Shown here: positions 1 through 16,079 of the stretch, in pieces
How positions within the stretch are numbered: position 1 is the stretch's first letter
Layout: every line of letters starts with the position of its first letter
Translations under genes and position numbers: made by a program
NCBI GenBank assembly: GCA_964653435.1
Contig: CAZZFA010000004.1
Span: 22,492-86,491 of the forward strand
Direction of reading: 5' to 3'
Length of the DNA: 64,000 nt
Source of the DNA: an uncultured Planctomycetales bacterium
Lineage (GTDB): Bacteria; Planctomycetota; Phycisphaerae; UBA1845; PWPN01
Notes under the pieces: generated by a model
The model's database searches: none
Told to the model about the DNA's origin: nothing
What the model saw: the letters and a program-made list of their open reading frames with translations, nothing else

Positions 1-2849
1 ACCGGGCTGTCGTGCCCCGGCAGAGCACCCGCGGACACGCCTGTCTGTGCGTTCCAGAGTTTCAGGGTGCCGTCGCGGGATGCGCTCGCCGCGATACGGC
101 CGTCTTGGGAGATGGCGACCGCAGCAACCCAGTGCTCATGGGCGCCAACTCTCCGTACGCCCTTGCCTCCTCGTACGTCCCATACGTGTATCATCCCATC
201 GTCGGTTCCGGCGAGCACCCGCTCCCCGTTGGCATTCATTGTCAGTACCGTGACGTCGTCACGGTGGCCACCGAGCCGGGAGATCTGACTTTCCTTTTCC
301 ACATCCCATACGCGTATCGGTTCCACGCCAGCCGCGGAGACAACGCGATTCCCGTTCTCGCTGATGGCAAGCGCCGACATGGTGGTCCGGTGCCCAGGCA
401 GAGTATGGAGTGTCTTGCGTCGTCGGAGATCCCAGACCTCAAGCCCAGAATGGGAGGGCGCAATGAGCGCACGCTCCCCGTCCCCAGAGACGGCGGCAAG
501 CCTCCGTTCGCTGGCCCACCTCAGTAAGATGCGCTGCTCCGAAGGCTTCTTGAGGTCCCATGCCTTGATCAACCATCCCATGTCGCCTTCCCCGGTGAGC
601 GACAGGATGTGCTCAGAGGTAACCAAGAGGGGGACGCTACCCCACTGACCAGTGTGCTCCGCGAAGACATGCAGAGGCATACGACTTCCAACAGCCCACA
701 CCTTCAATTGACGTTCCGAGCTACCCGACACAAGGCCCTCGGTATCTCTGGACGCGGCGACTCCCCAGACAGCCTTGCGACCCGCCATCCATGCTTCGAT
801 TTGCGCAAGACGAGTGAGTTCCCACACTCTCACAGCGCCGTCGGCGGATCCTGAAACAGCACGTTGGTTATCGCGACACGCCGCTAAGCAGAGGGTTTTC
901 TCGCGACCCGTTATCAGCGTTCCTAGCAGCCAGCCGCTCTCGACATCCCACACCCGCAGAGTCTTGTCATCTGCGGCTGATACGATGCGCCCTCCATCAC
1001 GGCACAGGGCCAACGCTCTTACTTGCCCCGAATGGGCGGCGAACGTTCGAACCGGGTACTCGCCCGGTGCAACCAGACTCGGTGTGAGTGGTCGTAGCCA
1101 CGTTTCTGTCTGGGACCGGCTCGTCTGAGTCAGCATCGTGTGCAAGTCGTGAGCTTTCAGGCCGGACAGACGCCCCATCAGTTGCGGTGCGAGTTGGGTC
1201 GGATCATGACGAAGCGCGGGCAGGGAGGCCCGCAAAGCCGCACGGACATGTTGAAGGGTCTCATCATCGGGTAGCCAGGCATAATCCGCGATCACATCCG
1301 CGGGATCACTCTCGCTAAGCCCTGCCCGAAGCCACTCGGGATCAAGCAGAAGGCTGCGGAGGAATAGGCGCTGCTTGGGCACACTCGACGTAGCCGCGTG
1401 CTCCGGCAGGAAGCGCAGATCATAATCACCCGGCAGCGCGTGCCGTTCGCGTTGACGTTCACCCGCCGCCTTCAGCTTTCGTTGGGCGGCTGTGACGATC
1501 AGGGCATGGGAGCCAGTAACCTCGGCATGGTGGTCTGCTTCCAGGAAGTCACGCAGGGCAACATGGTAAAGGCGGTAACGCTTGGTGTCGTTGTCAGATT
1601 GCTCCGACCGGGCGAACCCTGCGTCCGTCCACATGGCGAGGCTGTTCTGAACCTCTTTGAGCGGGAGACCCAGCCATTCCGCGATCGCTTTGGCCGCCAC
1701 AGATACCCGCGCGGCCGCCAGCGCACAGACAACCTTTGCATGAATATCGTCGAAGGCCGTGTTGTCCTCTTGACGAAGCTCGGTCCAGCGACGGCGGTAG
1801 TAATCAGAGAGACCATCGGGCAAGTCATCAGTGCGAGGATACGCACCAGCGTCGTTTGCGATCGTCTCAATCACATGCTTCAAATACAAGAGATTGCCCC
1901 GGCTCTTGGACCATAGCAGGTCGCTGCATCGCCGCCCATCGAGGTGGAGGCCCCGCATCCACTCCTTCAAGTGGCTCCCGAAAATGTACTTCTCTATGAT
2001 GGTGCGTACATCTTCTTCGTGTTCTGGGGTACCAGAATCCAGGTCGCAGCGCCACGCGTATCCCGTGCCGCGCTCGATCCATTCCGAGTCTTGAGCAGTG
2101 AGGACAAAGAACACGTTGCGAGGAAGGTGCCGAGGTAGAACCCGTTCCACGAAGACTTGTCGGTGCGGGCCTGCAAACAGCACATCCGACGAGTCTATCG
2201 CGATGATGAGGCGTTCCTGATCAAGCTGTTCAAGCGCTCCATGCGCCACCCGGCTCAGGAAGCTGCCGTCGTCGGCGAAACCAACGGGAAGGTCCTCGAT
2301 TGGTAACCGACCCAATTCAATCAATCGAGCACAGATGTTGCCGATGCATGCTCGGCGAGCATCTGGTCCCCATTCTGGTACGTCGAAGTGGTAAACAGGC
2401 AGTTCCCATCGTCGCACCAGTTCGGCAAGAAGAGCCGACTTGCCTGTACCTGGGGGGCCCGTGATCAGCACGTAGCCCGAAGGGACCTCCGGGCTTCGGA
2501 CGAAGGCCTCGATGCCACGAATCATGGATTCCCGGGCACCTTCAGCCCAGGACTCGCGAGATTCGTCGAGGTAGTTCGTGAACGAAAGGCAGTGCTGACA
2601 AAGCCTTGCCGACAGCACATACTCCGTGGCTTGCGCATCTTGCGTAAGCTCGTCGACATCGCATTCGAGGGCGTGTGCAAGCTTCTCGATCAGCTGCTGG
2701 TTCTTGAGTTCGCCCGCCAGGATATCCTGGAGGGACCTGACTGACATGCCTGCCTTGGCTGCGAGTTGCTTGCGTGATAGTCCCGAGTCGTTGCACCTCT
2801 TAATGCACACGTCAGGATTCACCTTCCCCTTGGGCACGGGCTTGCGCAT
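1..2849 (-). CDS. HTH (XRE-like) / P-loop STAND-type NTPase / WD40-repeat protein; C-terminus runs off the left window edge
   Basis: Absent from the ORF track because there is no stop in the window. Hand translation of the minus strand from ATG 2849-2847 gives MRKPVPKGKVNPDVCIKRCNDSGLSRKQLAAKAGMSVRSLQDILAG (HTH). Walker A GPPGTGKS lies at 2436-2459 (aa 131-138). WD40 signatures occur toward the 3' end (GTDDGMIHVWD at 177-209; also DDKTLRVWD, DGAVRVWE). The frame was spot-checked open at 1340-1400 (HAATSSVPKQRLFLRSL). Confidence 0.85.
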   Translation of the reverse strand, partial: MRKPVPKGKVNPDVCIKRCNDSGLSRKQLAAKAGMSVRSLQDILAGELKNQQLIEKLAHALECDVDELTQDAQATEYVLSARLCQHCLSFTNYLDESRESWAEGARESMIRGIEAFVRSPEVPSGYVLITGPPGTGKSALLAELVRRWELPVYHFDVPEWGPDARRACIGNICARLIELGRLPIEDLPVGFADDGSFLSRVAHGALEQLDQERLIIAIDSSDVLFAGPHRQVFVERVLPRHLPRNVFFVLTAQDSEWIERGTGYAWRCDLDSGTPEHEEDVRTIIEKYIFGSHLKEWMRGLHLDGRRCSDLLWSKSRGNLLYLKHVIETIANDAGAYPRTDDLPDGLSDYYRRRWTELRQEDNTAFDDIHAKVVCALAAARVSVAAKAIAEWLGLPLKEVQNSLAMWTDAGFARSEQSDNDTKRYRLYHVALRDFLEADHHAEVTGSHALIVTAAQRKLKAAGERQRERHALPGDYDLRFLPEHAATSSVPKQRLFLRSLLLDPEWLRAGLSESDPADVIADYAWLPDDETLQHVRAALRASLPALRHDPTQLAPQLMGRLSGLKAHDLHTMLTQTSRSQTETWLRPLTPSLVAPGEYPVRTFAAHSGQVRALALCRDGGRIVSAADDKTLRVWDVESGWLLGTLITGREKTLCLAACRDNQRAVSGSADGAVRVWELTRLAQIEAWMAGRKAVWGVAASRDTEGLVSGSSERQLKVWAVGSRMPLHVFAEHTGQWGSVPLLVTSEHILSLTGEGDMGWLIKAWDLKKPSEQRILLRWASERRLAAVSGDGERALIAPSHSGLEVWDLRRRKTLHTLPGHRTTMSALAISENGNRVVSAAGVEPIRVWDVEKESQISRLGGHRDDVTVLTMNANGERVLAGTDDGMIHVWDVRGGKGVRRVGAHEHWVAAVAISQDGRIAASASRDGTLKLWNAQTGVSAGALPGHDSP

Positions 2850-2889
2850 TTCTGCACTCTTTTCACAAGTTTGCACTCAATTCTGCACT
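2850..2889. promoter_or_regulatory. Triple direct repeat TTCTGCACT / TTTGCACT / TTCTGCACT (operator-like) abutting the start codon of the HTH-STAND gene
   Basis: Copies read directly at 2850-2858, 2870-2877 and 2881-2889. They sit in the divergent intergenic region between the HTH-STAND gene and the 3079 operon. Confidence 0.4.
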
Positions 2890-3078
2890 ACTAAGACCCG
2901 CGAACCAGGCCGCGAAGCCACTTAAGCTGATGGCATCCGCGGCAGCAATCGGGCCGCTCCTGACCGGATCGTCATACGGTCGGCAGGATAGCTCAGGAGG
3001 TCGAGCACCGCAATCGGAGCGGCCTTGCCTTGGGCGTACGAGGCGGCTCGCTTGAAACGGGACTCGGGATGATCGGAT

Positions 3079-3765
3079 ATGCGTCACAACGGATCACATC
3101 GTCACGTTCAGTCAGAGTCGACCAAAGGCAGCAACGGGGCCGCCGGGAACCGTGCACACGCGAACGGTGGCCTCGTCGCCGCGTGTCTTGGTTTCCGCCT
3201 GATGTTCGTTCAACTCCTCATCGACTACATCGCCGAAACGGCGGATCCCGCGGCCATCGCACTCTTTCGGGACCGGTGCCGTGTCTTTGAGCTGCCGACA
3301 GGCACGTTCGTCAATCTGGCCGAATTCCTGTCTGACAGCATCGAGCGGCCCTGGGCCAAACAACCAGCCTCATGCAGATCCAATGTCGTTGAGAACGCCC
3401 ATAACATAAGAGTGGACGTTCTGCTACCTGCACCTTCCCCCTGTGGCGATGTTCGTCCGCATTCGCACTTGATGACCTTCTTCAAGATATGCGCTGCTCA
3501 GGGGCGGAGGTGGTTAGACGCTCATTCGCAGGCATCCGTTGATGAAGTCCAGTGCCATCTCTTGCAGATCTACAATGAGCAGGCCGAGTTCCTGCTCAAT
3601 CATGTGCTCGGTGATGCGGTGCGTGCTCAGGAAGGTCCACGATCAGAATATCGCTGTCCCCTGACAGACCCTGAGGTGAGGCTCTACTTCCCCGTTTCGA
3701 TCGAAGGCAAACAACGTGGTTTCAGACTGAAGGCCGCTTTGGAGGAGGAAGGCCATGTCTCTTAA
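3079..3765 (+). CDS. hypothetical protein (first gene of unknown operon)
   Basis: 228-aa ORF with protein-like composition. Its stop overlaps the SD (GGAGGAGGAA, 3741-3750) and ATG of the next gene, indicating translational coupling. The start is uncertain (ATG 3079 or ATG 3202). No domain recognised. Confidence 0.6.
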   Translation: MRHNGSHRHVQSESTKGSNGAAGNRAHANGGLVAACLGFRLMFVQLLIDYIAETADPAAIALFRDRCRVFELPTGTFVNLAEFLSDSIERPWAKQPASCRSNVVENAHNIRVDVLLPAPSPCGDVRPHSHLMTFFKICAAQGRRWLDAHSQASVDEVQCHLLQIYNEQAEFLLNHVLGDAVRAQEGPRSEYRCPLTDPEVRLYFPVSIEGKQRGFRLKAALEEEGHVS

Positions 3766-4249
3766 CTTGACTCGGGACGAATTGCAGGCTGTCGTCGATC
3801 GACGGATCGGACACCCCGTTCTGGTCCCTTTGGGTGACGTCAATGAGTCCCGGGACTGCCCGCGGGATAACCGCACGCCGCTCGACATCCTGATTGCGCG
3901 CGAGGAGGCAGAGCTGCACATCGCCGAGCGCGTGGCGGAATACATGGCGGTCCACTACGAGGACTGGCGCCTGACACTGAGCCAACTGGGTCCGGCTGGG
4001 GTACATGCTTTAGTCTCTGAGATTCTTGGGGTGCTTCCTGCGCATGATTATGTGGCAGAAGAGGTCGCAGCCTCGCTTGATCTTAATCCCACGACATACA
4101 ACCGCATTGCGGGGCAGACAGGCCTGTCTGATCTCGCGCGAGCCACAGCACAACTCTGCTGCCAGGACGAGCATCTGAGGGAGTTTGCCTGTGAGTGCGG
4201 CCTCCGTAAGCACATCCGTCGCGCTCGCGATGGCGAGGGGGACCGTTGA
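3755..4249 (+). CDS. hypothetical protein, possible HTH
   Basis: 164-aa ORF with SD GGAGG just upstream of ATG 3755. The segment EEVAASLDLNPTTYNRIAGQ looks helix-turn-helix-like (weak). Its stop overlaps the TTG of the next ORF. Confidence 0.65.
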   Translation: MSLNLTRDELQAVVDRRIGHPVLVPLGDVNESRDCPRDNRTPLDILIAREEAELHIAERVAEYMAVHYEDWRLTLSQLGPAGVHALVSEILGVLPAHDYVAEEVAASLDLNPTTYNRIAGQTGLSDLARATAQLCCQDEHLREFACECGLRKHIRRARDGEGDR

Positions 4250-5562
4250 TCGGGAACCGCAACAAGTCGACGCGCCACAGCGGCGTGCAGACGGTACTTC
4301 TCGGCCGGGACCCGCACCATCGAATCGCTGTGCGGGCGAACGTCGTAGCTCGCCGGCATGCTGGTCCCGGTAAGCGATGCGCCGGGCATCGGCGACAAGC
4401 GGCCAATCAGGAGCTGCTGCTGTGCCCAGATCGGAGCGTCACAGAGCTGGTCTCCAGAGTGATCATGCAGCTATCCCATGGTTCAGCAGCGAAAGCACTC
4501 GATCTGTATCTGTCGCTGCCCACGGGTGTGTGGGCTGCCGATATGGAGGCGGCGTTCGATTTGTCTCTTCTCGATGCCGCCATCGTAGTCATCCTGATCG
4601 CCGCACATTTGAATCGCGCGATCATGCCCAACAGGGTGATCATCGGCCACATCAGGAACGCCCAGAACGGAATTACGATCCCGGCAGACTGCCTTGGCGT
4701 TCTCACACGTCTCCACGCAGACGACCCGACATACGCCATACCCGGCCTCGGCGGGGCCCCCTCTCATGTCAATTCAGGGGTGAGCCCCGCCCAGGACGCC
4801 CTCGAGCTAACCCGTCGCGCGTGCACGCCGGTGGAAGATTCTGTGCTTGGCATTGGTCAGCTCCTGCGAATGACCATCACCGATGTGCCTGACCTAGGCT
4901 CTTTGCTCGAGGCTCGAAGCGATGACCCAGAGCCGACCTTGGAGGTCGCGCAATCTTCTGAGTGCGGTACCGTTACGACCGCGCATGACATACTAGATAG
5001 TGTTCTCGTTCGCATCTCCCCCCGTGCACTGGCCGGTCAGTTCGCTCAGCCAGTGTCCCGGGCACAGTCGCTGCACGTGTTCAGCGATCTTACCGTCACA
5101 TCCTATGACGACTTTCTCGCCGCGCTGTGGCCCTTCTACGTTCGACTGCTGGTCGGGACGGGTTCCGGCAACGCCAGCCCTCACGATGCGATCGTGCAGT
5201 CCGACTGCCTCGTTCTCCTCGACCAGGCCTACGCCGACGATGGCGGACTGAAGGCGGCCTGGGCCGAGGCTCGCGACGGCCTTCACGGCGGCCTCCCCTC
5301 GGTCGCCGCGAAGCTGGCTCAGCAGTTCATCAAGAATCAGCAGGCCACGCATGTGACCAGTGTGATTTGTGATGCGCTCAAGGTACGCAGCTGGACGGAG
5401 CGCGTCGCGATCATGCGGGATCTGATGGCCCGTCTGGCCGTTCACATTCGCGACGATGCCGACTTGACTGCCGCCGAGAAGTTCGTGGAGCACGTCGAGT
5501 GGATTGCGCGGACTTACATCCACTCGCTGGACAGTATTCGGACGAGGTGTAACGCATTGTAG
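4246..5562 (+). CDS. hypothetical protein; C-terminus belongs to the island paralogue family
   Basis: 438-aa ORF from TTG. The first ~73 aa are Arg/His-rich and may be non-coding; an alternative start is ATG 4465 (MQLSHGSAAKALD). The C-terminal motif GGL...SWTERVAIMRDLMARL...EWIARTYIHSL aligns with the 5580 protein. Confidence 0.65.
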   Translation: MIGNRNKSTRHSGVQTVLLGRDPHHRIAVRANVVARRHAGPGKRCAGHRRQAANQELLLCPDRSVTELVSRVIMQLSHGSAAKALDLYLSLPTGVWAADMEAAFDLSLLDAAIVVILIAAHLNRAIMPNRVIIGHIRNAQNGITIPADCLGVLTRLHADDPTYAIPGLGGAPSHVNSGVSPAQDALELTRRACTPVEDSVLGIGQLLRMTITDVPDLGSLLEARSDDPEPTLEVAQSSECGTVTTAHDILDSVLVRISPRALAGQFAQPVSRAQSLHVFSDLTVTSYDDFLAALWPFYVRLLVGTGSGNASPHDAIVQSDCLVLLDQAYADDGGLKAAWAEARDGLHGGLPSVAAKLAQQFIKNQQATHVTSVICDALKVRSWTERVAIMRDLMARLAVHIRDDADLTAAEKFVEHVEWIARTYIHSLDSIRTRCNAL

Positions 5563-5579
5563 AAAGGAGAACTGTACAC

Positions 5580-6146
5580 ATGGACATGTCTATTCCGCAA
5601 CTGATTCATGCCCTCCAACCGCGAACCGTAGCCAGCGAAGTCACCAGGGCAATCGACCGGAGGGCGATGCAGTCTCCGAGCGATTTCGAGAAGCTCAGGA
5701 CCTTCAATGGCTATCGCGAGGAACTCGGGCGACACTACAGCCACGTCTACGGACAACCTCTTTCTGCCGCTGAAGCCGAGGGAAGAGGGGAGAGAATCGT
5801 GGACCGGGAGTACCACGAGCGCGGCGGCAATATAGTCAGCGCCTACCAGGACGCCGTCGAATCGACCAACGGCGGACTGCTCGCCCACCGGCAGATGATC
5901 ACGGAGGCCATCAAGGGCGAGGCGACTGAGTTTTACGTGCAGGGAGTGTTTTCGCATTTCTATGATCGCGCCTCCTGGGAGGCGCGTATCGAAGCTGTCA
6001 AGGCGTTCATCGCTTACTGTGGACACGAGCTGACCGGCCTCATCGATCCCGATCACGTTGAACGTCACGCCCATGACTTCCAGGAGCTTGTGCGGGCCTA
6101 CGTCGCTGCGCTGCATCGCAACGCAGCGCTCTTCCGTCGTCTGTAA
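5580..6146 (+). CDS. hypothetical protein, paralogue family member
   Basis: 188-aa ORF with SD AAGGAG about 10 nt upstream. The motif NGGL...SWEARIEAVKAFIAYCGHEL...LVRAYVAAL is shared with neighbours. Confidence 0.75.
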   Translation: MDMSIPQLIHALQPRTVASEVTRAIDRRAMQSPSDFEKLRTFNGYREELGRHYSHVYGQPLSAAEAEGRGERIVDREYHERGGNIVSAYQDAVESTNGGLLAHRQMITEAIKGEATEFYVQGVFSHFYDRASWEARIEAVKAFIAYCGHELTGLIDPDHVERHAHDFQELVRAYVAALHRNAALFRRL

Positions 6147-6193
6147 CAGCAAAGGTCAGGCGACCCATCGCGGCACGTCAACGACAGCAGGAG

Positions 6194-6856
6194 ATGGATA
6201 TGGACGACAGACTGTCCGATGAATCCCTCGATCAAATCGATCCCGAGCTGGTGTGGGCCACCTACGCCCAGAAGGGCCGTGGCCTCCTCGCCACCATTCA
6301 ATTCGACCCGCCGAGCGGCACCTCGCAGTCTGCCGTTCGCCAGTGGGTGGTGAACATCTGGCTGAAAGCCCGCAGGATCTTCGGCGATCCATTTCCAGTT
6401 TCGCGGAGCACGCCCCTGGAGACGTGGCAGACGTGCTCGGAGATGCTGGATCGTGCATGGGGCTATACAGAGGAAACGCTCACGGACCTGTCGCGTGGAT
6501 CCTCAGCGGACCATTATCGTCTTCTCACGGATCTCATTCTGACAATGGCCCACCAGAACGCACGATTGGATCTGGAGTCGCGTATCGGCTGCTGGATGTA
6601 CGAGATGCCTCCCGAGCAGAAGCTGAAGGCGGCTGATGTCTATCTCCGTCGCTTTGGACACTACCTGCCAGAAGTCCTGACTATCGGCAAGACGCGGCTG
6701 TTTTACTGTCGATTCGAAGAGACCCTCAAGCAGCATCCGGCGTTTGTGGACCGGTTTGATCTTGAAGAACGGAACTGCATGCATCGTGAGTCGCTGCACG
6801 AATCGGACCACCGTGGCACCCGACGTGCTCGGTCTCACACATGGAACGCAAAGTAA
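6194..6856 (+). CDS. hypothetical protein, paralogue family member
   Basis: 220-aa ORF. SD AGGAG lies at 6189-6193, so ATG 6200 has better spacing than ATG 6194. It contains CWMYEMPPEQKLKAADVYLRRFGHYLPEVL...RFEETLKQH. Confidence 0.75.
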   Translation: MDMDDRLSDESLDQIDPELVWATYAQKGRGLLATIQFDPPSGTSQSAVRQWVVNIWLKARRIFGDPFPVSRSTPLETWQTCSEMLDRAWGYTEETLTDLSRGSSADHYRLLTDLILTMAHQNARLDLESRIGCWMYEMPPEQKLKAADVYLRRFGHYLPEVLTIGKTRLFYCRFEETLKQHPAFVDRFDLEERNCMHRESLHESDHRGTRRARSHTWNAK

Positions 6857-6868
6857 GGAGGATTGCAG

Positions 6869-7447
6869 ATGAACGCGACACTGGAGGACCTTCTCGATGT
6901 GCTCAACCCCGACACGATGATCTTCGAGATCGAGCGTCGTAGCCAGCAGACACTCGGCCAGGTGAACTGGCCGGATGAGCCGTTTTCGGGGCCGGAGGAT
7001 TTCATGACGTTTCTCATCCAAGTCATGAGAGCGGGTGAGCGGCACATGCTCAACCTGCCCGAGGCCACGGGCGGCCACGATGGCCACTACCGCAGCATGT
7101 GCCGCAGCCTGCTCGATGAGATCTACGGCCCGAGCGGCTTACGCACGGCCTTTGACTTCGCGGTTTCCGGGGAGAACGGCGGGCTCTATAACGTGGTCTC
7201 GCAACTCCTCGGCCGGATGGCCGGCACGTACGCCGGCAATGAGATCGAAGGCCGCATCAACGCATGCTGGAACTCCCTCAGCCACGAGGAGAAACTCGCC
7301 GCGCCGGACGAGTATCTTGCCCGCTACGGCCATCTGCTGCCCCCCGAGTTGGTCGAGGGCAGCGCGCCCGTCGTCCGCGCCCGCTTTCCCGAGATGCTCA
7401 AGAACCATGTCCGTCTGCTCAAGGACCTGGCGCGGGTTGGGCGGTGA
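6869..7447 (+). CDS. hypothetical protein, paralogue family member
   Basis: The track ORF starts at TTG 6863, but ATG 6869 sits 7 nt after SD AAGGAGG. It contains NGGLYNVVSQLLGRM...CWNSLSHEEKLAAPDEYLARYGHLLPPEL...RFPEMLKNH...LARVGR. Confidence 0.8.
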   Translation: MNATLEDLLDVLNPDTMIFEIERRSQQTLGQVNWPDEPFSGPEDFMTFLIQVMRAGERHMLNLPEATGGHDGHYRSMCRSLLDEIYGPSGLRTAFDFAVSGENGGLYNVVSQLLGRMAGTYAGNEIEGRINACWNSLSHEEKLAAPDEYLARYGHLLPPELVEGSAPVVRARFPEMLKNHVRLLKDLARVGR

Positions 7448-7609
7448 TACACCGCAGCCTGGAGTTTGGAGAGCTTTACAGGGCTTGTCGGTAGCGAATT
7501 CTGTCGGGCGAAGATGAAATCGCGCGTCCATAACGACCGCACTCCATATGGCCAGCAGGTCGCCGGCCTTTGGCTACAGCGGCGTCAAGTGGCCGCAGAA
7601 AGGAGAAGC

Positions 7610-7972
7610 ATGAGCAAGTACTATGACAAGTGTGGAGGGCCTGAGCCCCTTCTCCCCAAGAAGGGTCCCTTCGGGCTCGGACGGGCGATGGAGCCGTACA
7701 AGTGTATCGAGCCGGACTGCTTGGGACATCTGAATCCGCGCGAGCGCTGCATACCTCTGCCGACTCGCTGCAAAGCCATAGGCTGTCCTGGGCATAAGTC
7801 TCCCTTCGAGAAGTGCCATGAGCCGATCTTCCCCATTCACTGCTCGGAGATGGGGTGCCCCGGCCATTCTCGTTTTGGCGAGAAGTGTTGGCGTCTGAAA
7901 ACGTACTGCGGTGCCCGAGGCTGTCCAGGGCATGAACCGCCGTTCACGGAGTGCTTCCCGTTCGATCCGTGA
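7610..7972 (+). CDS. small Cys/His-rich protein with four tandem C-x4-C-[LP]-G-H-x6-C units
   Basis: Internal ATG 7610 of track ORF 7466..7972 is preceded by SD AAAGGAGAAGC. The 120-aa product is MSKYYDKCGG...; the repeats are CIEPDCLGHLNPRERC, CKAIGCPGHKSPFEKC, CSEMGCPGHSRFGEKC and CGARGCPGHEPPFTEC. Confidence 0.75.
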   Translation: MSKYYDKCGGPEPLLPKKGPFGLGRAMEPYKCIEPDCLGHLNPRERCIPLPTRCKAIGCPGHKSPFEKCHEPIFPIHCSEMGCPGHSRFGEKCWRLKTYCGARGCPGHEPPFTECFPFDP

Positions 7973-8034
7973 GGGAACCGGTATTACTTTGGTGTCACCA
8001 GCAACATCAAAGCGATCATCACAGACCACGTAAT

Positions 8035-8090
8035 GCGACGCAGGCCTCGCGACCCCGCATGTGGATTCGCAGCCTGCGTCGCTCCTTTCT
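8035..8090 (+). terminator. hairpin (11-bp perfect stem GCGACGCAGGC/GCCTGCGTCGC, 26-nt loop) followed by a T-rich run
   Basis: Stem arms were read at 8035-8045 and 8072-8082, followed by TCCTTTCT. It lies about 60 nt after the stop of the Cys-rich gene, in a 296-nt lower-GC gap before the ATPase gene. Confidence 0.35.
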
Positions 8091-8268
8091 CGGGAGGTGT
8101 GAGCAGGTCAGCATGTACACGATGATTCTCTCGATGTGGTTCATCCTGATGGCGTCTGACCAGCCAGGCATGAGCCGGCATATGGCCACATCGACTGGAT
8201 GGTGCCGGATAACAGCCACCGCGTGTCCATCCAAAGTGCAAGGCTGAAAGAAAGGGAGGACCCAATCG

Positions 8269-10782
8269 ATGAGTAACGTGTCCGTGGAGCAGATTCTGCT
8301 TGCTCGCGCCCAGCCGCACGTGCTCGCCGCCCGCGAGCAGATGATCCTTGCCATTGAAGCACCAAAGGGCTGTTCGGGAGAGGTTGTGCGTCATCCGGTT
8401 TCATTGGAGCCGCCCTTCCGCCCTGTCCTGAGCGGCAACACATCAAGCCTTGTGCCTGAGGAGCACTACGTTCTGGAAGTTCCACCGCAAGAGAGTGCGC
8501 TCGTTCGTGCGCGCCTCTGGGTCTGTATCGAGCAGCCCTGCGAATGGAACAGGAGCGAGCTGTTCCTGAAAGGTCTCTCTCAGGTGCGACAGCGAGTGAC
8601 GATGAACATCTTCGGCAATAAGGATGGGATAGTGCAGCAGGTCGTGTGCCACGGAGAGGACCTGCCCGTGCTCGATTCGGCATTCAAGGGGTACTTCGAG
8701 CACTCCGCTATCTCCATCGCCGGTCGCGATGACCCATTGGCCCTGATACCCGGTGAGCAATGGGCCCATGCGCTCTTTCTGGATGCCTACCCATATCCCC
8801 TCTACTCCAACCGACTGACTTCAATGCGAGAGCTCCGGCAGAGTCCCTATGCGACGCTGTTCGCTTCTCTTGCACAGCTCGAGCCACCGGCCCTGGGCAT
8901 TTTCCAGGTCGTGTTTCAACCGGTGTCGCCTGAGCATGACTGGGGAGGCAATATCCGTGCTCTGACCGACATCGAATTCAAGCTGAAGCGACTGATCGGC
9001 TACAGCGGCTTCGATCGGTATGCGGAACAGCCTCCGTCCGGCGACCGGCATCAGATGGCCATGGAGATCGAGACGAAAGCCCACAACGACAAGCCCATTT
9101 ATGCTGTGGCTCTGCGTATTGCCGCGGTCAATGCCGGTGATCGGGCGGGACACATCTTGCGGTCTCTCGCCGTAGTGACCGGTGGAATCCAGCACGGCGG
9201 CCGGCCACTCCGGTTCATCACCGCGGAAGACTATCGGGGCCACATCGATCCGGTCGGGCTACGGCGCATGTTCGTTCTGGGCACTACCTACCGGCCCGGC
9301 TTCTTGCTGAACAGCGAAGAGCTGACAACTCTCTTTCATGTGCCGCCACCGGAAGTATTCGCACACATCAAGACCATCGTCAACCCACTCGAGGCACTAC
9401 CCATACCGGAAGCCCTCCGGGCCGGGAGCCCGATCGGATTCTGTCCCTATGCCGGCGAGTCCATTCCCATATGCATCCCGAACGAGGAGGAAGCGGAAGG
9501 GCACATTCACGTGATCGGCAGTAGCAGAACCGGCAAGTCGACGCTGCTGCTGCACCGGATTCTGTACCATATCAGGCACCACTATGGTGTTGCGGTGTTT
9601 GATCCGCATGGGACTCTCATTCGTGACCTGCTGTGCGTGATCCCTCCCGAGGAGATGGATCGGATAATCTACTTCGACCCAGGCGACCCACACCGGACGC
9701 CTTGTTACAACCTGTTCGCCTGCGGGGTCAAGGTTGGCCCAGGACGCGTGACGGAGGATGTCGTGTGCAGTTTCAAGAGCTTCATCGATGGCTGGGGTGA
9801 TCGTCTCGAGCACCTCCTGCGGCATGCCCTCTTCGGTGTCCTGCATTTGCCGAACAGTAATCTCCGAGATGTGGCCGACGTACTGCGCAAGAAGTCCAAG
9901 GCCAGTCGCCGTATTCGCGAGCAACTGCGCGGTGCCCTCGGCAATGATGTGGCCCAGGCGTTCTGGGAAGAGGATTTTGAAAACTACCAGCCAGCGGACC
10001 TTTTGCCCCCAGCCCACAAATTGTCGAAGCTGCTCGTTTCCGACACCGTCGGCCGCATGCTCTCCCAGGAGCAGTCCCGGTTCAATCTGCGAGACATCAT
10101 GGATAGCCGCAAAGTCCTTCTGATCGACTTGTCGAGTCTCGGTTCGGACGAGCGCAATGTGCTGGGTAGCCTGCTGCTGTCTTTGCTGCACCTGACTGCC
10201 CTCGGCCGCAAGGGGGATGGAACGGATGCGCCTTTTCGCGTCTACTGCGATGAGGCTCACCGTCTGCTGACGGACGCCATGGAAGACGCGCTCAACGAGT
10301 CGCTCAAGTTCGGCCTGGTAATGACATTGGCTCACCAGCAGCTGGCGCAACTTACCCAAAAGAAGACGCATGCGTTGGCCAGCGTCGGTGCGAGCATCAT
10401 TTTCCGGGTGATACAGCCGGATGCGCAATACCTAGCGAAGACGCTTCAAGGCAAGGTCAGTGCCGATATCCTGGAGACTCTGGACAATCGTGAGGTGGTG
10501 GTTCGTGTTGGCAACCAAGTTGTGCGCGGCCGCACCTATCCTCCCGCCTATCAGAAGGACCCTTCAGTGCGGGACAAGATCCTGGTGCGGTCACGAGAGC
10601 TCTACTACCGTCCGGCAGCGGTGGTGGACGCTGAGATCCGCGCACGCCGCAACCGGTGGGCCGATCCCGGACAGCAGGGTACCGGGGCAGGATCATCACC
10701 TGCCTCCTCCAGTGTGACCGCAGAATCTGCCAGTACACCGAACGACCAAGGGAACGAGGTGTTCACGTATGAGAGCTTCTGA
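8269..10782 (+). CDS. P-loop ATPase of the FtsK/HerA/VirD4(TraD/TraG)-like superfamily with a ~415-aa unknown N-terminal domain and no TM segment
   Basis: 837-aa ORF with SD AAAGGGAGGA upstream. Walker A GSSRTGKST lies at 9517-9543 (aa 417-425). A Walker B-like VYCDEAH lies near 10240-10260, with LAHQQLAQL downstream. The family assignment is from motif recollection, not a search. Confidence 0.9.
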   Translation: MSNVSVEQILLARAQPHVLAAREQMILAIEAPKGCSGEVVRHPVSLEPPFRPVLSGNTSSLVPEEHYVLEVPPQESALVRARLWVCIEQPCEWNRSELFLKGLSQVRQRVTMNIFGNKDGIVQQVVCHGEDLPVLDSAFKGYFEHSAISIAGRDDPLALIPGEQWAHALFLDAYPYPLYSNRLTSMRELRQSPYATLFASLAQLEPPALGIFQVVFQPVSPEHDWGGNIRALTDIEFKLKRLIGYSGFDRYAEQPPSGDRHQMAMEIETKAHNDKPIYAVALRIAAVNAGDRAGHILRSLAVVTGGIQHGGRPLRFITAEDYRGHIDPVGLRRMFVLGTTYRPGFLLNSEELTTLFHVPPPEVFAHIKTIVNPLEALPIPEALRAGSPIGFCPYAGESIPICIPNEEEAEGHIHVIGSSRTGKSTLLLHRILYHIRHHYGVAVFDPHGTLIRDLLCVIPPEEMDRIIYFDPGDPHRTPCYNLFACGVKVGPGRVTEDVVCSFKSFIDGWGDRLEHLLRHALFGVLHLPNSNLRDVADVLRKKSKASRRIREQLRGALGNDVAQAFWEEDFENYQPADLLPPAHKLSKLLVSDTVGRMLSQEQSRFNLRDIMDSRKVLLIDLSSLGSDERNVLGSLLLSLLHLTALGRKGDGTDAPFRVYCDEAHRLLTDAMEDALNESLKFGLVMTLAHQQLAQLTQKKTHALASVGASIIFRVIQPDAQYLAKTLQGKVSADILETLDNREVVVRVGNQVVRGRTYPPAYQKDPSVRDKILVRSRELYYRPAAVVDAEIRARRNRWADPGQQGTGAGSSPASSSVTAESASTPNDQGNEVFTYESF

Positions 10783-11377
10783 GCGGGATTCAGCTGGGGC
10801 GGACGAGGTGCTGCAGCGGCTTGTCGACATGCTGCAGCCGGGTCGGATCATGCGTATCATAGATGAGCCGGTCGACAAGGCGGCAGAGGTGTTCGCATGG
10901 CCGACCGAGTCGGCTGCCTCCCGCAACTTTGCACAAGTGCTCGCATCATTTCTGCAACACATATACCGGCACGCCTTCCCCGACGGCGAACAGCTCTCAC
11001 CGTGGCGCGCCCATGATGAAGTCATCGCTTTGCTCCAGGCTGATGCACAAGACCCTATGGCGGGAGGGTACATTGGCGCCGCGCTGGATACCCGGGATGC
11101 CGAAGCGCCGCCTTGGTATGAACTGGGCGCGCGTATCACCGGGGCCATCAAGACGCGTCTGCGTCGGCAATACGTTCAGTGGGTCCTCGCCATGGAGATC
11201 GACCCCCGCGACTGGTCCATGCAGTGTGCCTTGACGGAGATCGTGATCGAGCGGATGCAGCAATACCTGCCCCCTGAGATCGCTGCGGGCCCGCCCGAGC
11301 GATGGGCGAGCCAGCTCAGCGGCCTGCTTGGCATGTACCTGGGCCTGCAGGACGAGGGGGGAGTACGGTTGATCTGA
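10769..11377 (+). CDS. hypothetical protein, distant paralogue family member
   Basis: 202-aa ORF whose ATG overlaps the last codons of the ATPase gene (coupling). It contains ...ERMQQYLPPEIAAGPPERW..., resembling the YGHLLPPEL motif. Confidence 0.65.
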   Translation: MRASERDSAGADEVLQRLVDMLQPGRIMRIIDEPVDKAAEVFAWPTESAASRNFAQVLASFLQHIYRHAFPDGEQLSPWRAHDEVIALLQADAQDPMAGGYIGAALDTRDAEAPPWYELGARITGAIKTRLRRQYVQWVLAMEIDPRDWSMQCALTEIVIERMQQYLPPEIAAGPPERWASQLSGLLGMYLGLQDEGGVRLI

Positions 11378-11456
11378 CGGGTCTGAAACGGAATCTCCAT
11401 TTCTCCCGCTCTCCTGGCTGCAGGCCTGCTGTTCTTGGTGTGCAGCCGGGAGAGCC

Positions 11457-12578
11457 ATGGTGAGCCAAGCAGCACCAATCCCACCCACCCCCGAGCGGAT
11501 CGCCCTGTTCCGCGCGTGCTTCTCGGGCTTGACGCATGTCCGCGGCACCTACAACCCCGCCACCGGCCGGGCCTTCCCCATCAAGGGACCCGTGACGGAT
11601 GCCGTGATCCGCGACCATCTCCTCGGACTGCGACCGTACGGCGTTTACCTGCTCACCGGCAATGTGACCCGAGCGGTGGTGGCTGATTTCGATCAGGAGG
11701 ATCCGACTCTGCCGTGTGATTTCGTCGCGCAGGCATCGCACTATGGCATTCCCAGTTATTTGGAGCGGTCGAAACGCAATTGGCACGTCTGGATCTTCCT
11801 CGATTCGGCCGGGGTCTCCGCAAGGAAGGCCCGGCGCGTGGCCCAGCTCATACTCGATGAGATCGGTGCGCCCGCCACCGAGCTCTTCCCCAAACAGGAC
11901 TGTCTCAGCAGTACGATTCAATTCGGCAATTTCATTCACCTCCCTTTGTTCGGCCGTGCTCTGGCTCAGGGACGAACCACGTTTGTTGATGTCAAGAACG
12001 GCTTGCGGCCGTACCCCGACCAGTGGGCCGTATTGGCCCAGATCGTGCGGGTCCAAGAACATCAGCTGGACGAAATCATCGCGATCAACGAGCTCGACGA
12101 GCCTCACTCCATAGGGGTGACCACAACCAGCTCCGGTTTGCATAAAACCTTCGGCCTTCTGCCTTGTGCCCAGCGGATGCTCAGGGAGGGGGTAACCAGC
12201 CACCAACGAGTGGCCTGTTTTCGGCTGGCCGTCGCGATCAAGAAGAGTGGTATACCGCTCGACCTCGCCGTGGTGCTCCTGCGGGCCTGGGCCCTGAAGA
12301 ACCGGCCCGAAAAAGGGCGGAGAATCATCACTGAGGCCGAGATCATCGAGCAGGCTAATGCAGCTTATGCCCGGCCGTACCGAGGCATCGGTTGTGAAGA
12401 CGCGGCGATCAGGCCTTTTTGCGATGCCAGCTGCCTTTTGCACCGCCGGCGCCCTCAATGCCGGAGGGTTTTGCCTGAGAGGACGCCTCCGCATCCGGCT
12501 GGCCGGACGCGAGGCTTGCCGGCGCAGGACAACTCGCGGGGGCAAGGGAGCCCAGGATCGACTTCGTCCTCTGGGTGA
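11457..12578 (+). CDS. archaeo-eukaryotic primase-type Prim-Pol replication protein
   Basis: 373-aa ORF with SD GGGAGAG upstream. AEP-like motifs are VVADFD, NWHVWIFL and GNFIHLPLFG. A C-terminal Cys cluster reads CEDAAIRPFCDASC. The last ~55 aa are a low-complexity tail overlapping the convergent gene. Confidence 0.8.
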   Translation: MVSQAAPIPPTPERIALFRACFSGLTHVRGTYNPATGRAFPIKGPVTDAVIRDHLLGLRPYGVYLLTGNVTRAVVADFDQEDPTLPCDFVAQASHYGIPSYLERSKRNWHVWIFLDSAGVSARKARRVAQLILDEIGAPATELFPKQDCLSSTIQFGNFIHLPLFGRALAQGRTTFVDVKNGLRPYPDQWAVLAQIVRVQEHQLDEIIAINELDEPHSIGVTTTSSGLHKTFGLLPCAQRMLREGVTSHQRVACFRLAVAIKKSGIPLDLAVVLLRAWALKNRPEKGRRIITEAEIIEQANAAYARPYRGIGCEDAAIRPFCDASCLLHRRRPQCRRVLPERTPPHPAGRTRGLPAQDNSRGQGSPGSTSSSG

Positions 12579-13416
12579 GATCCCCACCTGCAGTCCAGAT
12601 CGGGGCCCACAGGCCCTCTCGCCGCATACGGGAATCTTCGGTCGCCCACACGAAGTCCGATGGCGGCGTCTGTCGGATGAGCTGACACAAGCCGGCAATG
12701 CGGGAGACGCCGCCGGCAACAAACAAGACACGGAAACCGATGAACGGCTTGTTGCCGGTCGCGAAACGCTGATAGTCCCCGCTGCGAAACCATGCCTGAT
12801 ACCGCAGGATCTTGGATTGGACATCACGGTTGGGGCCACGGCCGCTGATCCGTGGCTGTGTTCCCATGTCTACCTCCAGGAAGAAAAGGAGCGTCTTGTC
12901 GACGCCCCGATGCCGGATGGCGAAGACGCCATCGGGAACAAGGTCGGCCTGCCCGCTGATCGGCTTGTTCTCCAAGGATTGCGTGTCGGCCGGAACCGGC
13001 CGGTTCGTGCTGATTCGTGACGTCGCGAGATTCAGGGTTTCAAAGCCGCTGAAGTGGCGGGCCAGGAGAGTCAGTTGGGCCCACACCTCGCTTGCCACCT
13101 CGTCGTGTTCGGGGTGCTTCAGCCCGCGGACGGTGAGCTGTTCGGCCGTGATGTCGGCATCAATCAGGCCCAGGGCCTTCAGGCAAGTGACGCCGTTGGC
13201 CGACAGCGACACCAGCTTTTCCGGGCGACCGCTGCCCCGACCGAGTCGGCTGGAGTCGGCCTCGATCAGTCCCTGCTCATGAAGAATCCTGAGTCGGTGT
13301 CGGGTAGCCGGACCGTTCCGCTCACACCGTATCGCCAGTTGTGTCGCTGTCAGCACCCGATGCTCGGCAATCGTCAGGAGCAGCTCATGATCACGTTCCG
13401 AGAGAACGAAGCCCAT
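12409..13416 (-). CDS. replication-relaxation family protein (winged-helix N-terminus)
   Basis: The track ORF starts at GTG 13428, but ATG 13416 follows SD GGTGGAG. The N-terminus MGFVLSERDHELLLTIAEHRVLTATQLA...RHRLRILHEQGLI and the later FFLEVDMGT match my recollection of Pfam Replic_Relax (unverified). Confidence 0.8.
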   Translation of the reverse strand: MGFVLSERDHELLLTIAEHRVLTATQLAIRCERNGPATRHRLRILHEQGLIEADSSRLGRGSGRPEKLVSLSANGVTCLKALGLIDADITAEQLTVRGLKHPEHDEVASEVWAQLTLLARHFSGFETLNLATSRISTNRPVPADTQSLENKPISGQADLVPDGVFAIRHRGVDKTLLFFLEVDMGTQPRISGRGPNRDVQSKILRYQAWFRSGDYQRFATGNKPFIGFRVLFVAGGVSRIAGLCQLIRQTPPSDFVWATEDSRMRREGLWAPIWTAGGDLTQRTKSILGSLAPASCPAPASLASGQPDAEASSQAKPSGIEGAGGAKGSWHRKKA

Positions 13417-13607
13417 CACAGTCTCCACCTTGCGGGCTCGATTGCAGGAACCGAACCGCGCATCATCCTGTACTGCGAGAGGAATCCGATCTGGATTTCA
13501 ATCGAGCAGCCCCGCACCCCTATGAGATGCAAGACAACTCATCGTGAGGCTCGACACTCGCAAACACCTGAAACCAGAAACCCATTTGACCCGCTGGTAT
13601 TGATAGA

Positions 13608-13659
13608 GGCTGCTGAAGCAGCCCGGCTGACCGAGGTGGTACGCAGGACAGTATCCTGC
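13608..13659. promoter_or_regulatory. two short perfect inverted repeats in a divergent intergenic region (candidate ori/oriT or operator)
   Basis: GGCTGCT-GA-AGCAGCC lies at 13608-13623 and GCAGGA-cagta-TCCTGC at 13643-13659. Both lie between the replication-relaxation gene and the 13743 gene. Confidence 0.25.
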
Positions 13660-13742
13660 GATCCATCCGGGAGCCGGGCGATCTTCAAGCATCCTGATCG
13701 TGATTGGGTGATATTCGTGTTCATGCGAGAAGGAGGTTCGAG

Positions 13743-14081: not shown

Positions 14082-14107
14082 CAAAATGATGCGTCGATTG
14101 TGCTCAG

Positions 14108-14140
14108 GAAGCCCGCTGGCTCGCCGCTGGCGGGCTTCTT
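14108..14140 (+). terminator. rho-independent-type hairpin
   Basis: GAAGCCCGC (14108-14116) pairs with GCGGGCTTC (14130-14138), followed by TT. It lies 27 nt after the 14081 stop. Confidence 0.5.
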
Positions 14141-14246
14141 GGTAATCCCAGTCAGAAAGAGGCCACACCATCATCCCCAGAGGTGTCGACCATGTGCTTC
14201 CCGGGGCACAGTTAGGCAAGCAGGGCAACAGCACGTGAGCTAACGG

Positions 14247-14600
14247 ATGAACGAGCGCGCCGAAGAATATGTCTTGCCGACCAAGCTCATCGAGGAGCTG
14301 ATCGAAGCGATACAGGACCTTCGAAGTGCCAGGAACCCGGCCGAGGCGATGAGGCCCCTCAGCATCGATGAGGCGGCCAAGACTCTCCGTTGCCGGCGAA
14401 GCGAAGTAGAGAAGCTGATTGCGAACGGAGCAATGCCCTACATCAAGCGCAATGGCCGACGCTACATCCTGCCGTCAGATATCGCCCAGTGGCTGAAGAA
14501 TGAATCGGAACGACAGCTTCCTCCCAAAGGCAGAAGAAGACCCCGGCACCGTCTGAAACCAGAGGACGTCGATCCGGCCTTACGGGAGTTTTTTGAGTGA
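14247..14600 (+). CDS. excisionase-type helix-turn-helix DNA-binding protein
   Basis: 117-aa ORF. LSIDEAAKTLRCRRSEVEKLIANGAMPYIKRNGRRYILPSDIAQWL is typical of the excisionase/MerR-like HTH_17 class. It is convergent with the integrase and overlaps it by 21 nt. Confidence 0.75.
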   Translation: MNERAEEYVLPTKLIEELIEAIQDLRSARNPAEAMRPLSIDEAAKTLRCRRSEVEKLIANGAMPYIKRNGRRYILPSDIAQWLKNESERQLPPKGRRRPRHRLKPEDVDPALREFFE

Positions 14601-15920
14601 TCGCGTCTTGTGCTTCTTCTTCCAGGCGTTCAGCTCTTTGGAGTCGAGCGTCTTGTTGATCCACTCCACGACTTCCTTCGTTTCTGGGGTCAGAGGCTTG
14701 AGGTACTCATCCGCAGCGTCGGACCTGCCGTGGCCAAGGAAGGTCCTCAGCTGGGCGATACCGGTACCGGGGCGAGCCGCGTACGCAGTCGCACCGAGGT
14801 GTCGCCAGACGTAGAAGCCCTCTTTCCACTGCTCAAGGTCTGCTCGAATCCGGAGCTTTCGCCAGGCTTGGGCCACATCGTCGGAACGCTTGAACGGGGT
14901 TTTCGCGGGTTTTCGCGTACTGGTGCCGTTCAGCATCTCGTCTATGGTCTTGGTCATCACCCAAACCAGGGGCCTGCCCGTTCTGGTGACGAAGAGCAAC
15001 TCATCCGCCTGTCTCGGTGTGCTCTTCAGGTACTCCCTAAGGTGAGCCCACACCTGCGGCCGCATCACTCCGAAACGGGGAAAACCCGTCTTGCCTCGCC
15101 GCATGTCGTAACTGTCCGCGTCGAAGTGGACCAACCGGGCACGGGCCAGATCGTCGTTCCCAAAACCCAAGCCGAGGCCCATCCAGATCCACAGACGCTC
15201 GCGGACCGTGGCGGCCTCGAGGAGTGTTTGAATCATCTTGACGGTCGGAATCTGCCGGGTCTTCTTCGTCTCGGTGCCGCCGAACTTCCTGACGTCCTCT
15301 TGACTGAACGGTAGCCGGATACTGAAGGGGGCTCGCCGTGCAAAGCGCACGATCTCCCAGAAGCGCTGGCGGTGTTTGTTGACCTGCGAGGCGCCCAACC
15401 GTGTGACGAGGGAGAGCATCATGGACTCGTAGTCGGTTGCACCCAGGACTTGATCGAAGGGCGTAGTGCCCAGCTTGGTGCCGTACGTCTCCTTGCACCA
15501 CCGCAGGATGCGGACGACTTGCCTACGGTTGTCGTCGAACACCCGCAGGCTGATGGTACCCTTCGCTCGTCTCGCCTCCTCCAGCCGCACCCGTCGCCTT
15601 TCGTGCTGCAGGTAGGCCTCTGCTATCGCCGGCAGACTATCGTCCAGATCCCCCTTGCCGACTTCGCTGTCCCGTGTAACAATAGCGGCGGCTTGGTCGT
15701 AGTTCTCGACGACCCACCGGTGGTACGCGAGTTCGGACTCGGTTCGGTCCGTCGAGAATCGCTGTCGCCTGGGCTTGCCGGCGGGATCGCGGTATGATGT
15801 GTAGTAGCGGCCCGTGCCGGGTTCAGGCTTGTCGGAGAGCCTGGGGATGCGTCGTTTTCGCTGGGGCTTTTGCTCGGTCATGACGGACATGATACAATCA
15901 ACCCTGGCGAGTGGCAACAT
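14580..15920 (-). CDS. int: tyrosine-type site-specific recombinase/integrase
   Basis: 446-aa ORF. C-terminal catalytic-region motifs are MRRGKTGFPR, WRHLGATAYA and FLGHGRSDAADEYL. The start could also be ATG 15890 or 15881. Confidence 0.9.
   Translation of the reverse strand: MLPLARVDCIMSVMTEQKPQRKRRIPRLSDKPEPGTGRYYTSYRDPAGKPRRQRFSTDRTESELAYHRWVVENYDQAAAIVTRDSEVGKGDLDDSLPAIAEAYLQHERRRVRLEEARRAKGTISLRVFDDNRRQVVRILRWCKETYGTKLGTTPFDQVLGATDYESMMLSLVTRLGASQVNKHRQRFWEIVRFARRAPFSIRLPFSQEDVRKFGGTETKKTRQIPTVKMIQTLLEAATVRERLWIWMGLGLGFGNDDLARARLVHFDADSYDMRRGKTGFPRFGVMRPQVWAHLREYLKSTPRQADELLFVTRTGRPLVWVMTKTIDEMLNGTSTRKPAKTPFKRSDDVAQAWRKLRIRADLEQWKEGFYVWRHLGATAYAARPGTGIAQLRTFLGHGRSDAADEYLKPLTPETKEVVEWINKTLDSKELNAWKKKHKTRSLKKLP

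Positions 15921-16007: not shown

Positions 16008-16079
<72 letters not shown>

Follow-up and report, generated by a model that had tools for sequence, protein, structure and literature searches.

A short gene from an uncultured Planctomycetales bacterium encodes a 120-residue protein built around four tandem 16-residue Cys-Cys-His-Cys (CCHC) units, and this unit defines a rare repeat family that is uncatalogued in the libraries we searched. The gene lies on contig CAZZFA010000004.1, within the 64,000-nucleotide stretch that was analyzed as a whole (the window), and it is a genuine, conserved gene under purifying selection. Its product, the CPGH-repeat protein, probably binds zinc, and it is encoded in an integrated mobile element next to the gene of a VirD4/TrwB/HerA-like ATPase. 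Features are listed in Table 1, and related loci and proteins are referred to by L and P numbers, respectively.

Translation of the open reading frame (ORF) reproduces exactly the 120-amino acid (aa) product with four C-x4-C-[LP]-G-H-x6-C units that had been described in the first-pass annotation of this DNA. The strong Shine-Dalgarno sequence noted there is present as AAGGAG and conserved in relatives, and the N-terminus contains no hydrophobic stretch, in agreement with the stated absence of a signal peptide. A word-indexed search of 5.8 billion proteins identified two close homologues of the repeat protein, P0001 (84%) and P0002 (69%), both of which are found in the same gene order as in the window, and L001 retains the upstream block in full together with the beginning of the ATPase gene. 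The ratio of non-synonymous to synonymous divergence (dN/dS, Nei-Gojobori) is 0.23 between the window and L001 and 0.36 between the window and L006, and substitutions in the forward frame fall mostly at third codon positions (21/22/49). This conserved, purifying pattern is that of coding and not of non-coding DNA, consistent with the earlier view that the gene is expressed. Moreover, all 16 Cys/His ligand positions are invariant in six ATPase-linked or close homologues, although the ATPase-linked ones are only 38-47% identical overall. The protein contains 13 Cys and 6 His in its 120 residues and carries a net charge of +4, and the exact window product is absent from a collection of 15 billion proteins. 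A longer frame starting at TTG 7466 or ATG 7514, which was prompted by weak 3-periodic substitutions upstream, was rejected, as this frame is interrupted by a stop in L001 and shifted in L006.

The organization of the repeats suggests how the unit is built. In the window protein the linkers between units are 6, 8 and 6 residues long, correcting the 5-7 residues given previously, and no further C-x4-C-[LP]-G-H-x6-C unit occurs elsewhere in a six-frame scan of all 64 kb. When the residues of the protein were shuffled 200,000 times, just 139 shuffles contained at least one unit, and for a stricter DNA pattern of two units shuffled windows give an expected count of 0.00, so the units are not explained by chance. 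The unit consensus is [YFW]-x-C-G-x-P-G-C-P-G-H-x4-E-[KR]-C, in which the C, C, G, H and C positions are invariant in 48 of 48 aligned units; commonly, the first Cys is preceded by an aromatic residue, the second by G-x-P-G and the last by E-[KR]. The zinc-knuckle-like ligand set of three Cys and one His per unit that was originally proposed is thereby upheld, as the C-C-H-C positions are invariant family-wide. DNA-pattern scans of genomes and metagenomes extended the family to a total of 99 units in 26 proteins. Among these, 87 units have a C-C spacing of 4, 92 have an H-C spacing of 6, and a Pro lies between the second Cys and the Gly-His in 77; the linkers between units range from 3 to 29 residues, and the number of units per protein ranges from 2 to 8, with odd numbers (3, 5) included. 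The fixed spacing inside the unit, the free length of the linkers and the odd numbers of copies together indicate that each 16-residue unit carries all four ligands of its own site, as an autonomous CCHC metal site would. Two other ways of reading the repeat were rejected. A CCCH register, in which the last Cys of one unit joins the C, C and H of the next, conflicts with a linker that varies from 3 to 29 residues beside a fixed H-x6-C. A pairing as in the DnaJ-type cysteine-rich repeat, which consists of four paired CxxCxGxG repeats forming two Zn sites, does not describe the unit, given its other motif, four ligands per unit, odd unit numbers and lack of a Pfam match.

The family is rare, and its units occur in small and in large proteins. 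Exhaustive searching of 1.84 billion representative proteins with HMMER returned 17 matches, most of which are 64-174 aa long and almost wholly built of CCHC units. A 112-aa protein with five units is encoded in a Candidatus Buchananbacteria genome (L009), and an eight-unit protein was found in a metagenome (L034). The units also occur inside larger proteins, including members of 445 and 508 aa (P0016 and P0017) with four central units and a C-terminal HExxH motif, and HExxH-type proteins of ~565-586 aa from two Planctomycetota metagenome-assembled genomes (MAGs; L015 and L019) and an unclassified bacterial MAG (L025). No obvious signal peptide was seen in any of the large unit-bearing proteins (~445-586 aa with a metzincin-like HExxH, and a DUF922 fusion). 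In the family generally, a signal-peptide-like N-terminus is found in P0015 only and is lacking in nearly all other relatives, and 18 of 21 small family members have a net basic charge. In the genome-wide DNA-pattern scan, 18 of 23 matches were discarded as off-frame simple-sequence 'CPGHx' repeats from GC-rich or other genomes; for the metagenome scan a Glu/Asp codon was added to the pattern, and these off-frame repeats were gone. The GCPGH repeat was not recognised as a named family in the first-pass annotation, and this is borne out by the absence of any match for the repeat protein or its units in Pfam, NCBIfam, PHROGs or PADLOC, and of any match among PDB sequences for the repeat protein, the unit profile or a di-unit profile. 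The di-unit profile also found nothing in the word-indexed protein search, phage, plasmid and IMG/VR collections held no relatives of the repeat protein or the ATPase, and full-text papers searched for CPGH, GCPGH, the spacing string and AEP-TOTE contained nothing relevant. Gene callers missed or mis-framed two of three divergent repeat genes that were inspected. Because they miss short Cys-rich repeat genes of this kind, the family is probably under-counted in protein databases.

Comparison of related elements identifies the ATPase as the partner of the repeat gene. The ATPase, whose N-terminal 390 residues are unannotated, has 258 full-length homologues in the searched collection, several of which are source-named 'type IV secretion system DNA-binding domain-containing protein'; the source-named homologues come from Planctomycetes, Phycisphaerae, Sedimentisphaerales, Deltaproteobacteria/Desulfobacteraceae and Candidatus Sumerlaeota MAGs. 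Eleven ATPase contexts were inspected for the repeat gene. The first-pass annotation had placed the gene last in an unknown operon and proposed to follow its co-occurrence with both the upstream paralogues and the ATPase. The second association holds, as the window lineage, L040 and L035 all have the repeat gene on the 5′ side of the ATPase. The first does not, as the L035 homologues of the 438-, 188-, 220- and 194-aa paralogue genes form a block that follows PrimPol; the supposed operon is the backbone of the mobile element. Because the L035 repeat gene has kept its position even though this block moved, the ATPase, and not the set of upstream paralogues, is the stable genomic partner of the repeat gene. 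In six further elements (L036, L037, L039, L041, L042 and L043) a 193-195-aa paralogue directly precedes the ATPase. The absence of the repeat gene from these elements indicates that it is accessory, and it appears confined to an ATPase clade of at least ~56% identity. Within this clade it was kept while its product diverged to 38-41% identity, with no ligand position lost.

The DNA around the repeat gene is conserved along with it. Both non-coding flanks, 7448-7609 and 7973-8268, are conserved to the same degree as the coding sequence (79-89%), and in Rfam they gave just a sub-threshold match to M23 (E = 0.61). The hairpin previously noted 3′ of the gene is real, with perfect 11-bp arms at 8035-8045 and 8072-8082 and a folding energy of -33.8 kcal/mol (z = -4.0). 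Its core, ACGCAGGC-N-GCCTGCGT, is present in all nine loci in which the repeat gene directly precedes the ATPase, is identical in L040, whose repeat protein is only about 40% identical, and is absent from elements without the repeat gene. The hairpin may be an intrinsic terminator, overlooked by a simple terminator scan owing to the length and structure of its loop, and it could also be a protein-binding or oriT-like (origin of transfer) site. The leader, the repeat gene and the conserved stem-loop behave as a small cassette, and this cassette (window 7448-8268 versus L001 7098-7924) is 3-6 times more diverged than the flanking genes. For window versus L001, dS is 0.14-0.30 in the flanking genes and 0.88 in the repeat gene, which has a dN of 0.20 and an unchanged dN/dS. 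A raised dS at the same dN/dS suggests mosaic recombination between related elements, by which the cassette may have been replaced and not released from constraint. The 164-aa gene at 3755-4249 shows a similar excess divergence (dS 0.71).

Our analysis makes zinc binding by the repeat protein probable, because the C-C-H-C set is invariant and both the window protein and nearly all of its relatives lack a signal peptide. The invariant His in particular argues for a metal site rather than disulfides. Each mini-domain would hold one Zn(II) through its Cys-Cys-His-Cys ligands, and the protein would form a proline-linked string of four knuckles. Whether such a cytoplasmic Zn(Cys3His) string acts as an accessory factor at the ATPase step is, in our judgment, evenly balanced. 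The array would bind the ATPase and/or nucleic acid, such as DNA or RNA of the element in single-stranded or hairpin form, and this binding would assist or regulate DNA processing or transfer by the element. A nucleic-acid- or ATPase-directed role is the likeliest of those considered, yet it is put forward tentatively, at somewhat less than even odds. It is modelled on CNBP and the retroviral nucleocapsid, which are tandem CCHC arrays, and on TrwA/TraM. Several observations weigh against it. The charge of the repeat protein is mildly positive, and Zn(Cys)3His sites would add negative charge to it; a conserved acidic residue is present in each unit; and the fusion partners of the units are putative zinc peptidases, not nucleic-acid enzymes. 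Proteins with these units are also found in contexts unrelated to the window element (L009, L034, L044 and the peptidase fusions), and the unit is a general module rather than a dedicated part of this mobile element. In addition, six related elements do without the gene, AlphaFold2 models of the repeat protein are of low confidence (predicted local distance difference test, pLDDT, of 35 with 3 sequences and 54 with 17), and Foldseek gave no match against the PDB. It would be a long shot that the repeat protein, the hairpin and the VirD4/HerA-like ATPase form a minimal DNA-recognition/translocation module. If true, a zinc-knuckle array would take the oriT role of the ribbon-helix-helix proteins TrwA/TraM, and would represent a new class of nucleic-acid chaperone/adaptor for DNA transfer, based on an undescribed 16-residue CCHC fold, in a large family of Planctomycetota-type integrative elements whose genes are for the most part unmatched in the searched libraries.

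A different role for a zinc-stabilized array is that of a protein-protein adaptor or regulator without nucleic-acid binding, serving as a regulator of the ATPase or as an anti-defence or host-targeting cargo effector. We regard this as unlikely, though it deserves serious consideration, as the gene is accessory and lineage-restricted, its 3-6 times excess divergence at synonymous and non-synonymous sites resembles that of an exchangeable cargo cassette, the charge is mildly basic only, and a binding module would suit the putative peptidases that contain the units or are fused to them. However, the dN/dS of 0.23 is no higher than that of the neighbours and does not suggest an arms race, neither PADLOC nor known anti-defence matches were found, and the position beside the ATPase was kept through rearrangement. 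The high Cys and His content also brings to mind a metallothionein-like buffer or metallochaperone, which would bind Zn (or Cu or Cd) and hand it over. The number of units varies among proteins, and in two cases predicted Zn-dependent hydrolase-like domains (DUF922, HExxH proteins) are joined to units, as might be expected of such a function. It is nonetheless improbable, given that the rigid 4/2/6 spacing, the invariant Gly and the conserved Pro, aromatic and Glu-Lys/Arg residues indicate a defined fold and not a plastic cluster, that Pfam scans revealed no metal-resistance genes in the element, and that the sole match to prokaryotic metallothionein (PF02069) was in 1 of 17 members at E = 4.9.

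The two remaining explanations are less probable still. A small, Cys-rich, repetitive product with a variable number of units could be the precursor of a ribosomally synthesized and post-translationally modified peptide (RiPP) or of a disulfide-rich secreted peptide with repeated core units, and the signal-peptide-like N-terminus of P0015 would suit this. The window locus has neither the leader or signal region nor the maturation enzyme of a RiPP system: none of 17 element ORFs, a set that includes a likely non-coding ORF at 13539-14234, has a maturase-type domain in Pfam (radical SAM, YcaO, lanthionine synthetase, MNIO, peptidase or exporter). As the units are also internal to 445-586-aa proteins and the invariant His fits a metal ligand, we consider a peptide precursor very improbable. 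Hardest of all to credit is that the ORF is non-functional and that the conserved entity is non-coding RNA or DNA around it, or else an ORF on the opposite strand (7574-8029). The equal conservation of the flanks, the missing exact product in a large protein collection and the divergent copies overlooked by gene callers would be explained in this way; against it stand the third-position substitutions and dN/dS of 0.23-0.36 in the forward frame, the retention of all 16 ligand codons at about 40% protein identity, and the occurrence of the unit in 17 independent protein clusters elsewhere.

The repeat gene sits in an integrated mobile element that occupies positions 1-16079 of the window, as shown by the integrase, HTH_17 (helix-turn-helix), Replic_Relax, PrimPol and ATPase genes in the low-GC part and by the boundary at a tRNA gene. 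The GC content is ~0.60 at 1-16000 versus 0.66-0.69 further right, and the break coincides with tRNA-Gly(CCC); the integrase-like and excisionase-like genes lie beside this tRNA, and replication/transfer genes complete the features of an integrative element. The 5′ end of the tRNA-Gly faces the element, which is unusual for tRNA-targeting integrases. Neither att repeats nor the left end of the element were found in the window, and no recognisable type IV secretion system channel genes were seen in the element. The six-gene block upstream of the repeat gene has no Pfam, NCBIfam, PHROG or PADLOC match. A ~190-aa paralogous domain (window 4246-7447 and 10769-11377; L035-L043) makes up the 188-, 220-, 194- and 202-aa genes and the C-terminus of the 438-aa protein, and contains motifs such as GGL/HGG...EEKLAA.DEYL.RYGHLLPPEL, also without a match in these libraries. 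The N-terminal part of a 558-aa homologue may be Lon-protease-like, judged by eye. A defence role for the neighbouring genes was not borne out, since PADLOC gave just weak mad8/HerA and PrimPol matches. TOTE conflict systems (TPR, OB, TBP, Effector) are defined by TPR-CSD/OB and TBP genes alongside the AEP (PMC12458937). Such a system was likewise rejected for this locus, where only the name of the PrimPol model matches and no TPR, OB or TBP domains are found among the neighbours.

Several further observations concern this DNA and its relatives. At 1542-2612 on the reverse strand the window has no long ORF, and tblastn finds 32% identity over 363 aa to the 628-aa AAA_16 NTPase of L001, which is encoded divergently upstream of the operon there; this segment is probably a degraded or frameshifted copy of the AAA_16 NTPase gene. 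Right of the element lie genes for sulfatases, a pectate lyase and an esterase, a set that we take to be associated with Planctomycetota- or Verrucomicrobiota-type genomes. A giant ORF of 4669 aa (44606-58615, forward strand) contains 13 RHS-repeat stretches, He_PIG, PKD and Big_9 Ig-like domains and DUF6531, and is an RHS-type polymorphic-toxin-like surface protein that is unrelated to the repeat gene. Among the related elements, a class-II-like ribonucleotide reductase gene directly follows PrimPol in L036 (14318-16627) and L039 (14318-16618), a Ser/Thr kinase is found among the genes of the L036, L037, L039, L041 and L043 group, and L042 has a gene with an ArdC-N anti-restriction domain. 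A second large upstream protein is 832 aa long with a weak DUF87 match in L039, and 924-930 aa long with no recorded family in L037, L041 and L043. This element family has a large accessory repertoire, which is untouched by our literature searches run on repeat and TOTE terms.

Table 1. Features of the window, followed by unit-bearing and ATPase-bearing loci elsewhere (identities in the last rows are those of the ATPase to the window ATPase).
Feature	Position	Strand	Basis or remark
Six unannotated genes (228, 164, 438, 188, 220, 194 aa)	3079..7447	+	block conserved in related elements
Conserved non-coding leader	7448..7609	+	79-89% identical to L001 and L006; stops/frameshifts in relatives
Shine-Dalgarno AAGGAG, 4 nt 5′ of ATG	7600..7605	+	sequence; kept in L001 and L006, similar in L035 and L040
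Coding sequence, 120-aa CPGH-repeat protein	7610..7972, stop included	+	translation, syntenic homologues, dN/dS
Unit 1, CIEPDCLGHLNPRERC, ligands C32, C37, H40, C47	7703..7750	+	translation; invariant ligand columns
Unit 2, CKAIGCPGHKSPFEKC, ligands C54, C59, H62, C69	7769..7816	+	translation; invariant ligand columns
Unit 3, CSEMGCPGHSRFGEKC, ligands C78, C83, H86, C93	7841..7888	+	translation; invariant ligand columns
Unit 4, CGARGCPGHEPPFTEC, ligands C100, C105, H108, C115	7907..7954	+	translation; invariant ligand columns
Conserved non-coding spacer, repeat gene to ATPase gene	7973..8268	+	79-81% identity; no frame open in both window and L001
Stem-loop, perfect 11-bp arms, structured 26-nt loop, T-rich tail TCCTTTCT	8035..8082	+	fold and conservation
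837-aa VirD4/TrwB/HerA-like ATPase	8269..10782	+	weak matches: TrwB_AAD_bind, DUF87, TraD/VirB4, phrog_5156, mad8/HerA
202-aa paralogue gene	10769..11377	+	~190-aa paralogous domain
PrimPol, AEP-TOTE type	11457..12578	+	PF22548, 2e-32; PADLOC PrimPol
Replication-relaxation (Replic_Relax) family protein	12409..13428	-	PF13814, 1.1e-15
Excisionase-like HTH_17 gene	14247..14600	+	PF12728, 1.6e-10
Integrase-like gene	14580..15920	-	phrog_216 integrase, 2.9e-8
tRNA-Gly(CCC), right edge of element at GC break	16008..16079	+	ARAGORN
HExxH-type protein with units	L019 646-2340		
HExxH-type protein with units	L025 1524-3284	-	
DUF922 putative zinc peptidase fused to two units	L029 6326-7063		Planctomycetota MAG
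Same 120-aa repeat gene	L038		ATPase 100% identical
Four-unit gene, end 179 nt before ATPase	L040 16-387	+	ATPase 68%; another frame annotated by caller
Uncalled five-unit gene (MKYFCLNPGCLGH...), then one 231-aa gene, then ATPase	L035 8899-9246	+	ATPase 57%
No repeat gene in any frame	L036, L037, L039, L041, L042, L043		ATPase 43-52%

These findings bear on both metal-binding folds and mobile elements. If zinc binding is true, the unit would represent a new minimal 16-residue metal-binding fold with a spacing unlike that of the retroviral-type CCHC, AN1 and MYT1 fingers, and short enough for structural and design work at the peptide level. In Planctomycetota and a Candidatus Buchananbacteria genome it is used in two forms, free-standing arrays of 2-8 units and modules built into enzymes. 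The repeat gene also flags a widespread family of integrative elements, with the ATPase homologues spread across several phyla, whose backbone genes are unmatched in the searched families except for the ATPase (weakly), PrimPol, Replic_Relax, HTH and integrase genes. To our knowledge, the mobile genetic elements of these phyla have been little studied, and a possible link of the mini-fold to DNA translocation in such mostly unannotated elements is intriguing.

Among known systems, the unit is most readily compared with three zinc fingers, and the gene with those of small DNA-binding accessory proteins that adjoin genes for type IV coupling ATPases. With the zf-CCHC knuckle (PF00098; HIV-1 nucleocapsid, and CNBP with its seven knuckles) the unit shares the C-C-H-C order and its shortness (16 versus 14 residues); in both, a Gly directly precedes the His, an aromatic residue lies close to the first Cys, and small proteins consist almost wholly of tandem copies on flexible linkers. 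It differs in being bacterial, in its much less basic charge, in a conserved Glu per unit and in its spacing, which is C-x4-C-x2-H-x6-C in all four window units and most of the 99, compared with C-x2-C-x4-H-x4-C. The zf-CCHC hidden Markov model (HMM) gave no match at E ≤ 0.1 for the window protein and none at E ≤ 10 in the 17 members, one of which had a zf-CCHC_6 match at E = 1. The AN1 zinc finger (PF01428) shares the C-x4-C-x2-H spacing and a Cys ~6-7 residues after the His, and among the papers searched the string 'CX4CX2H' occurs in A20/AN1 papers and a few unrelated ones only. AN1 is, however, a eukaryotic or archaeal, cross-braced domain of ~40 residues with two Zn, eight ligands (C-x2-C-x9-12-C-x1-2-C-x4-C-x2-H-x5-H-x-C) and no tandem 16-residue repeat; the unit holds only the C-x4-C-x2-H...C part, without the N-terminal half and the second His, and the AN1 HMM matched neither the window protein nor the 17 members. 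The MYT1/NZF CCHHC finger (zf-C2HC, PF01530) begins similarly, with C-x-x-P-G-C followed by G-H, and forms tandem DNA-binding arrays, but it is eukaryotic, spans ~30 residues as C-x4-C-x4-H-x7-H-x5-C, a spacing of which the unit shares just C-x4-C, and has a second His; there was no Pfam match to it, and the unit and di-unit profiles found no such PDB chain. Beyond the fingers, TrwA (R388) and TraM (F) resemble the repeat protein in being ~120 aa long and encoded immediately upstream of a VirD4/TrwB-like ATPase, near a conserved inverted repeat. They are ribbon-helix-helix or helical tetramers without Cys/His repeats or homology to it, and no sequence similarity was found in Pfam, PDB sequences or NCBIfam; the analogy is one of position and size only. 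By its ligand pattern, the unit is CCHC-knuckle-like and stands outside the zf-CCHC, AN1, MYT1, DnaJ and metallothionein families.

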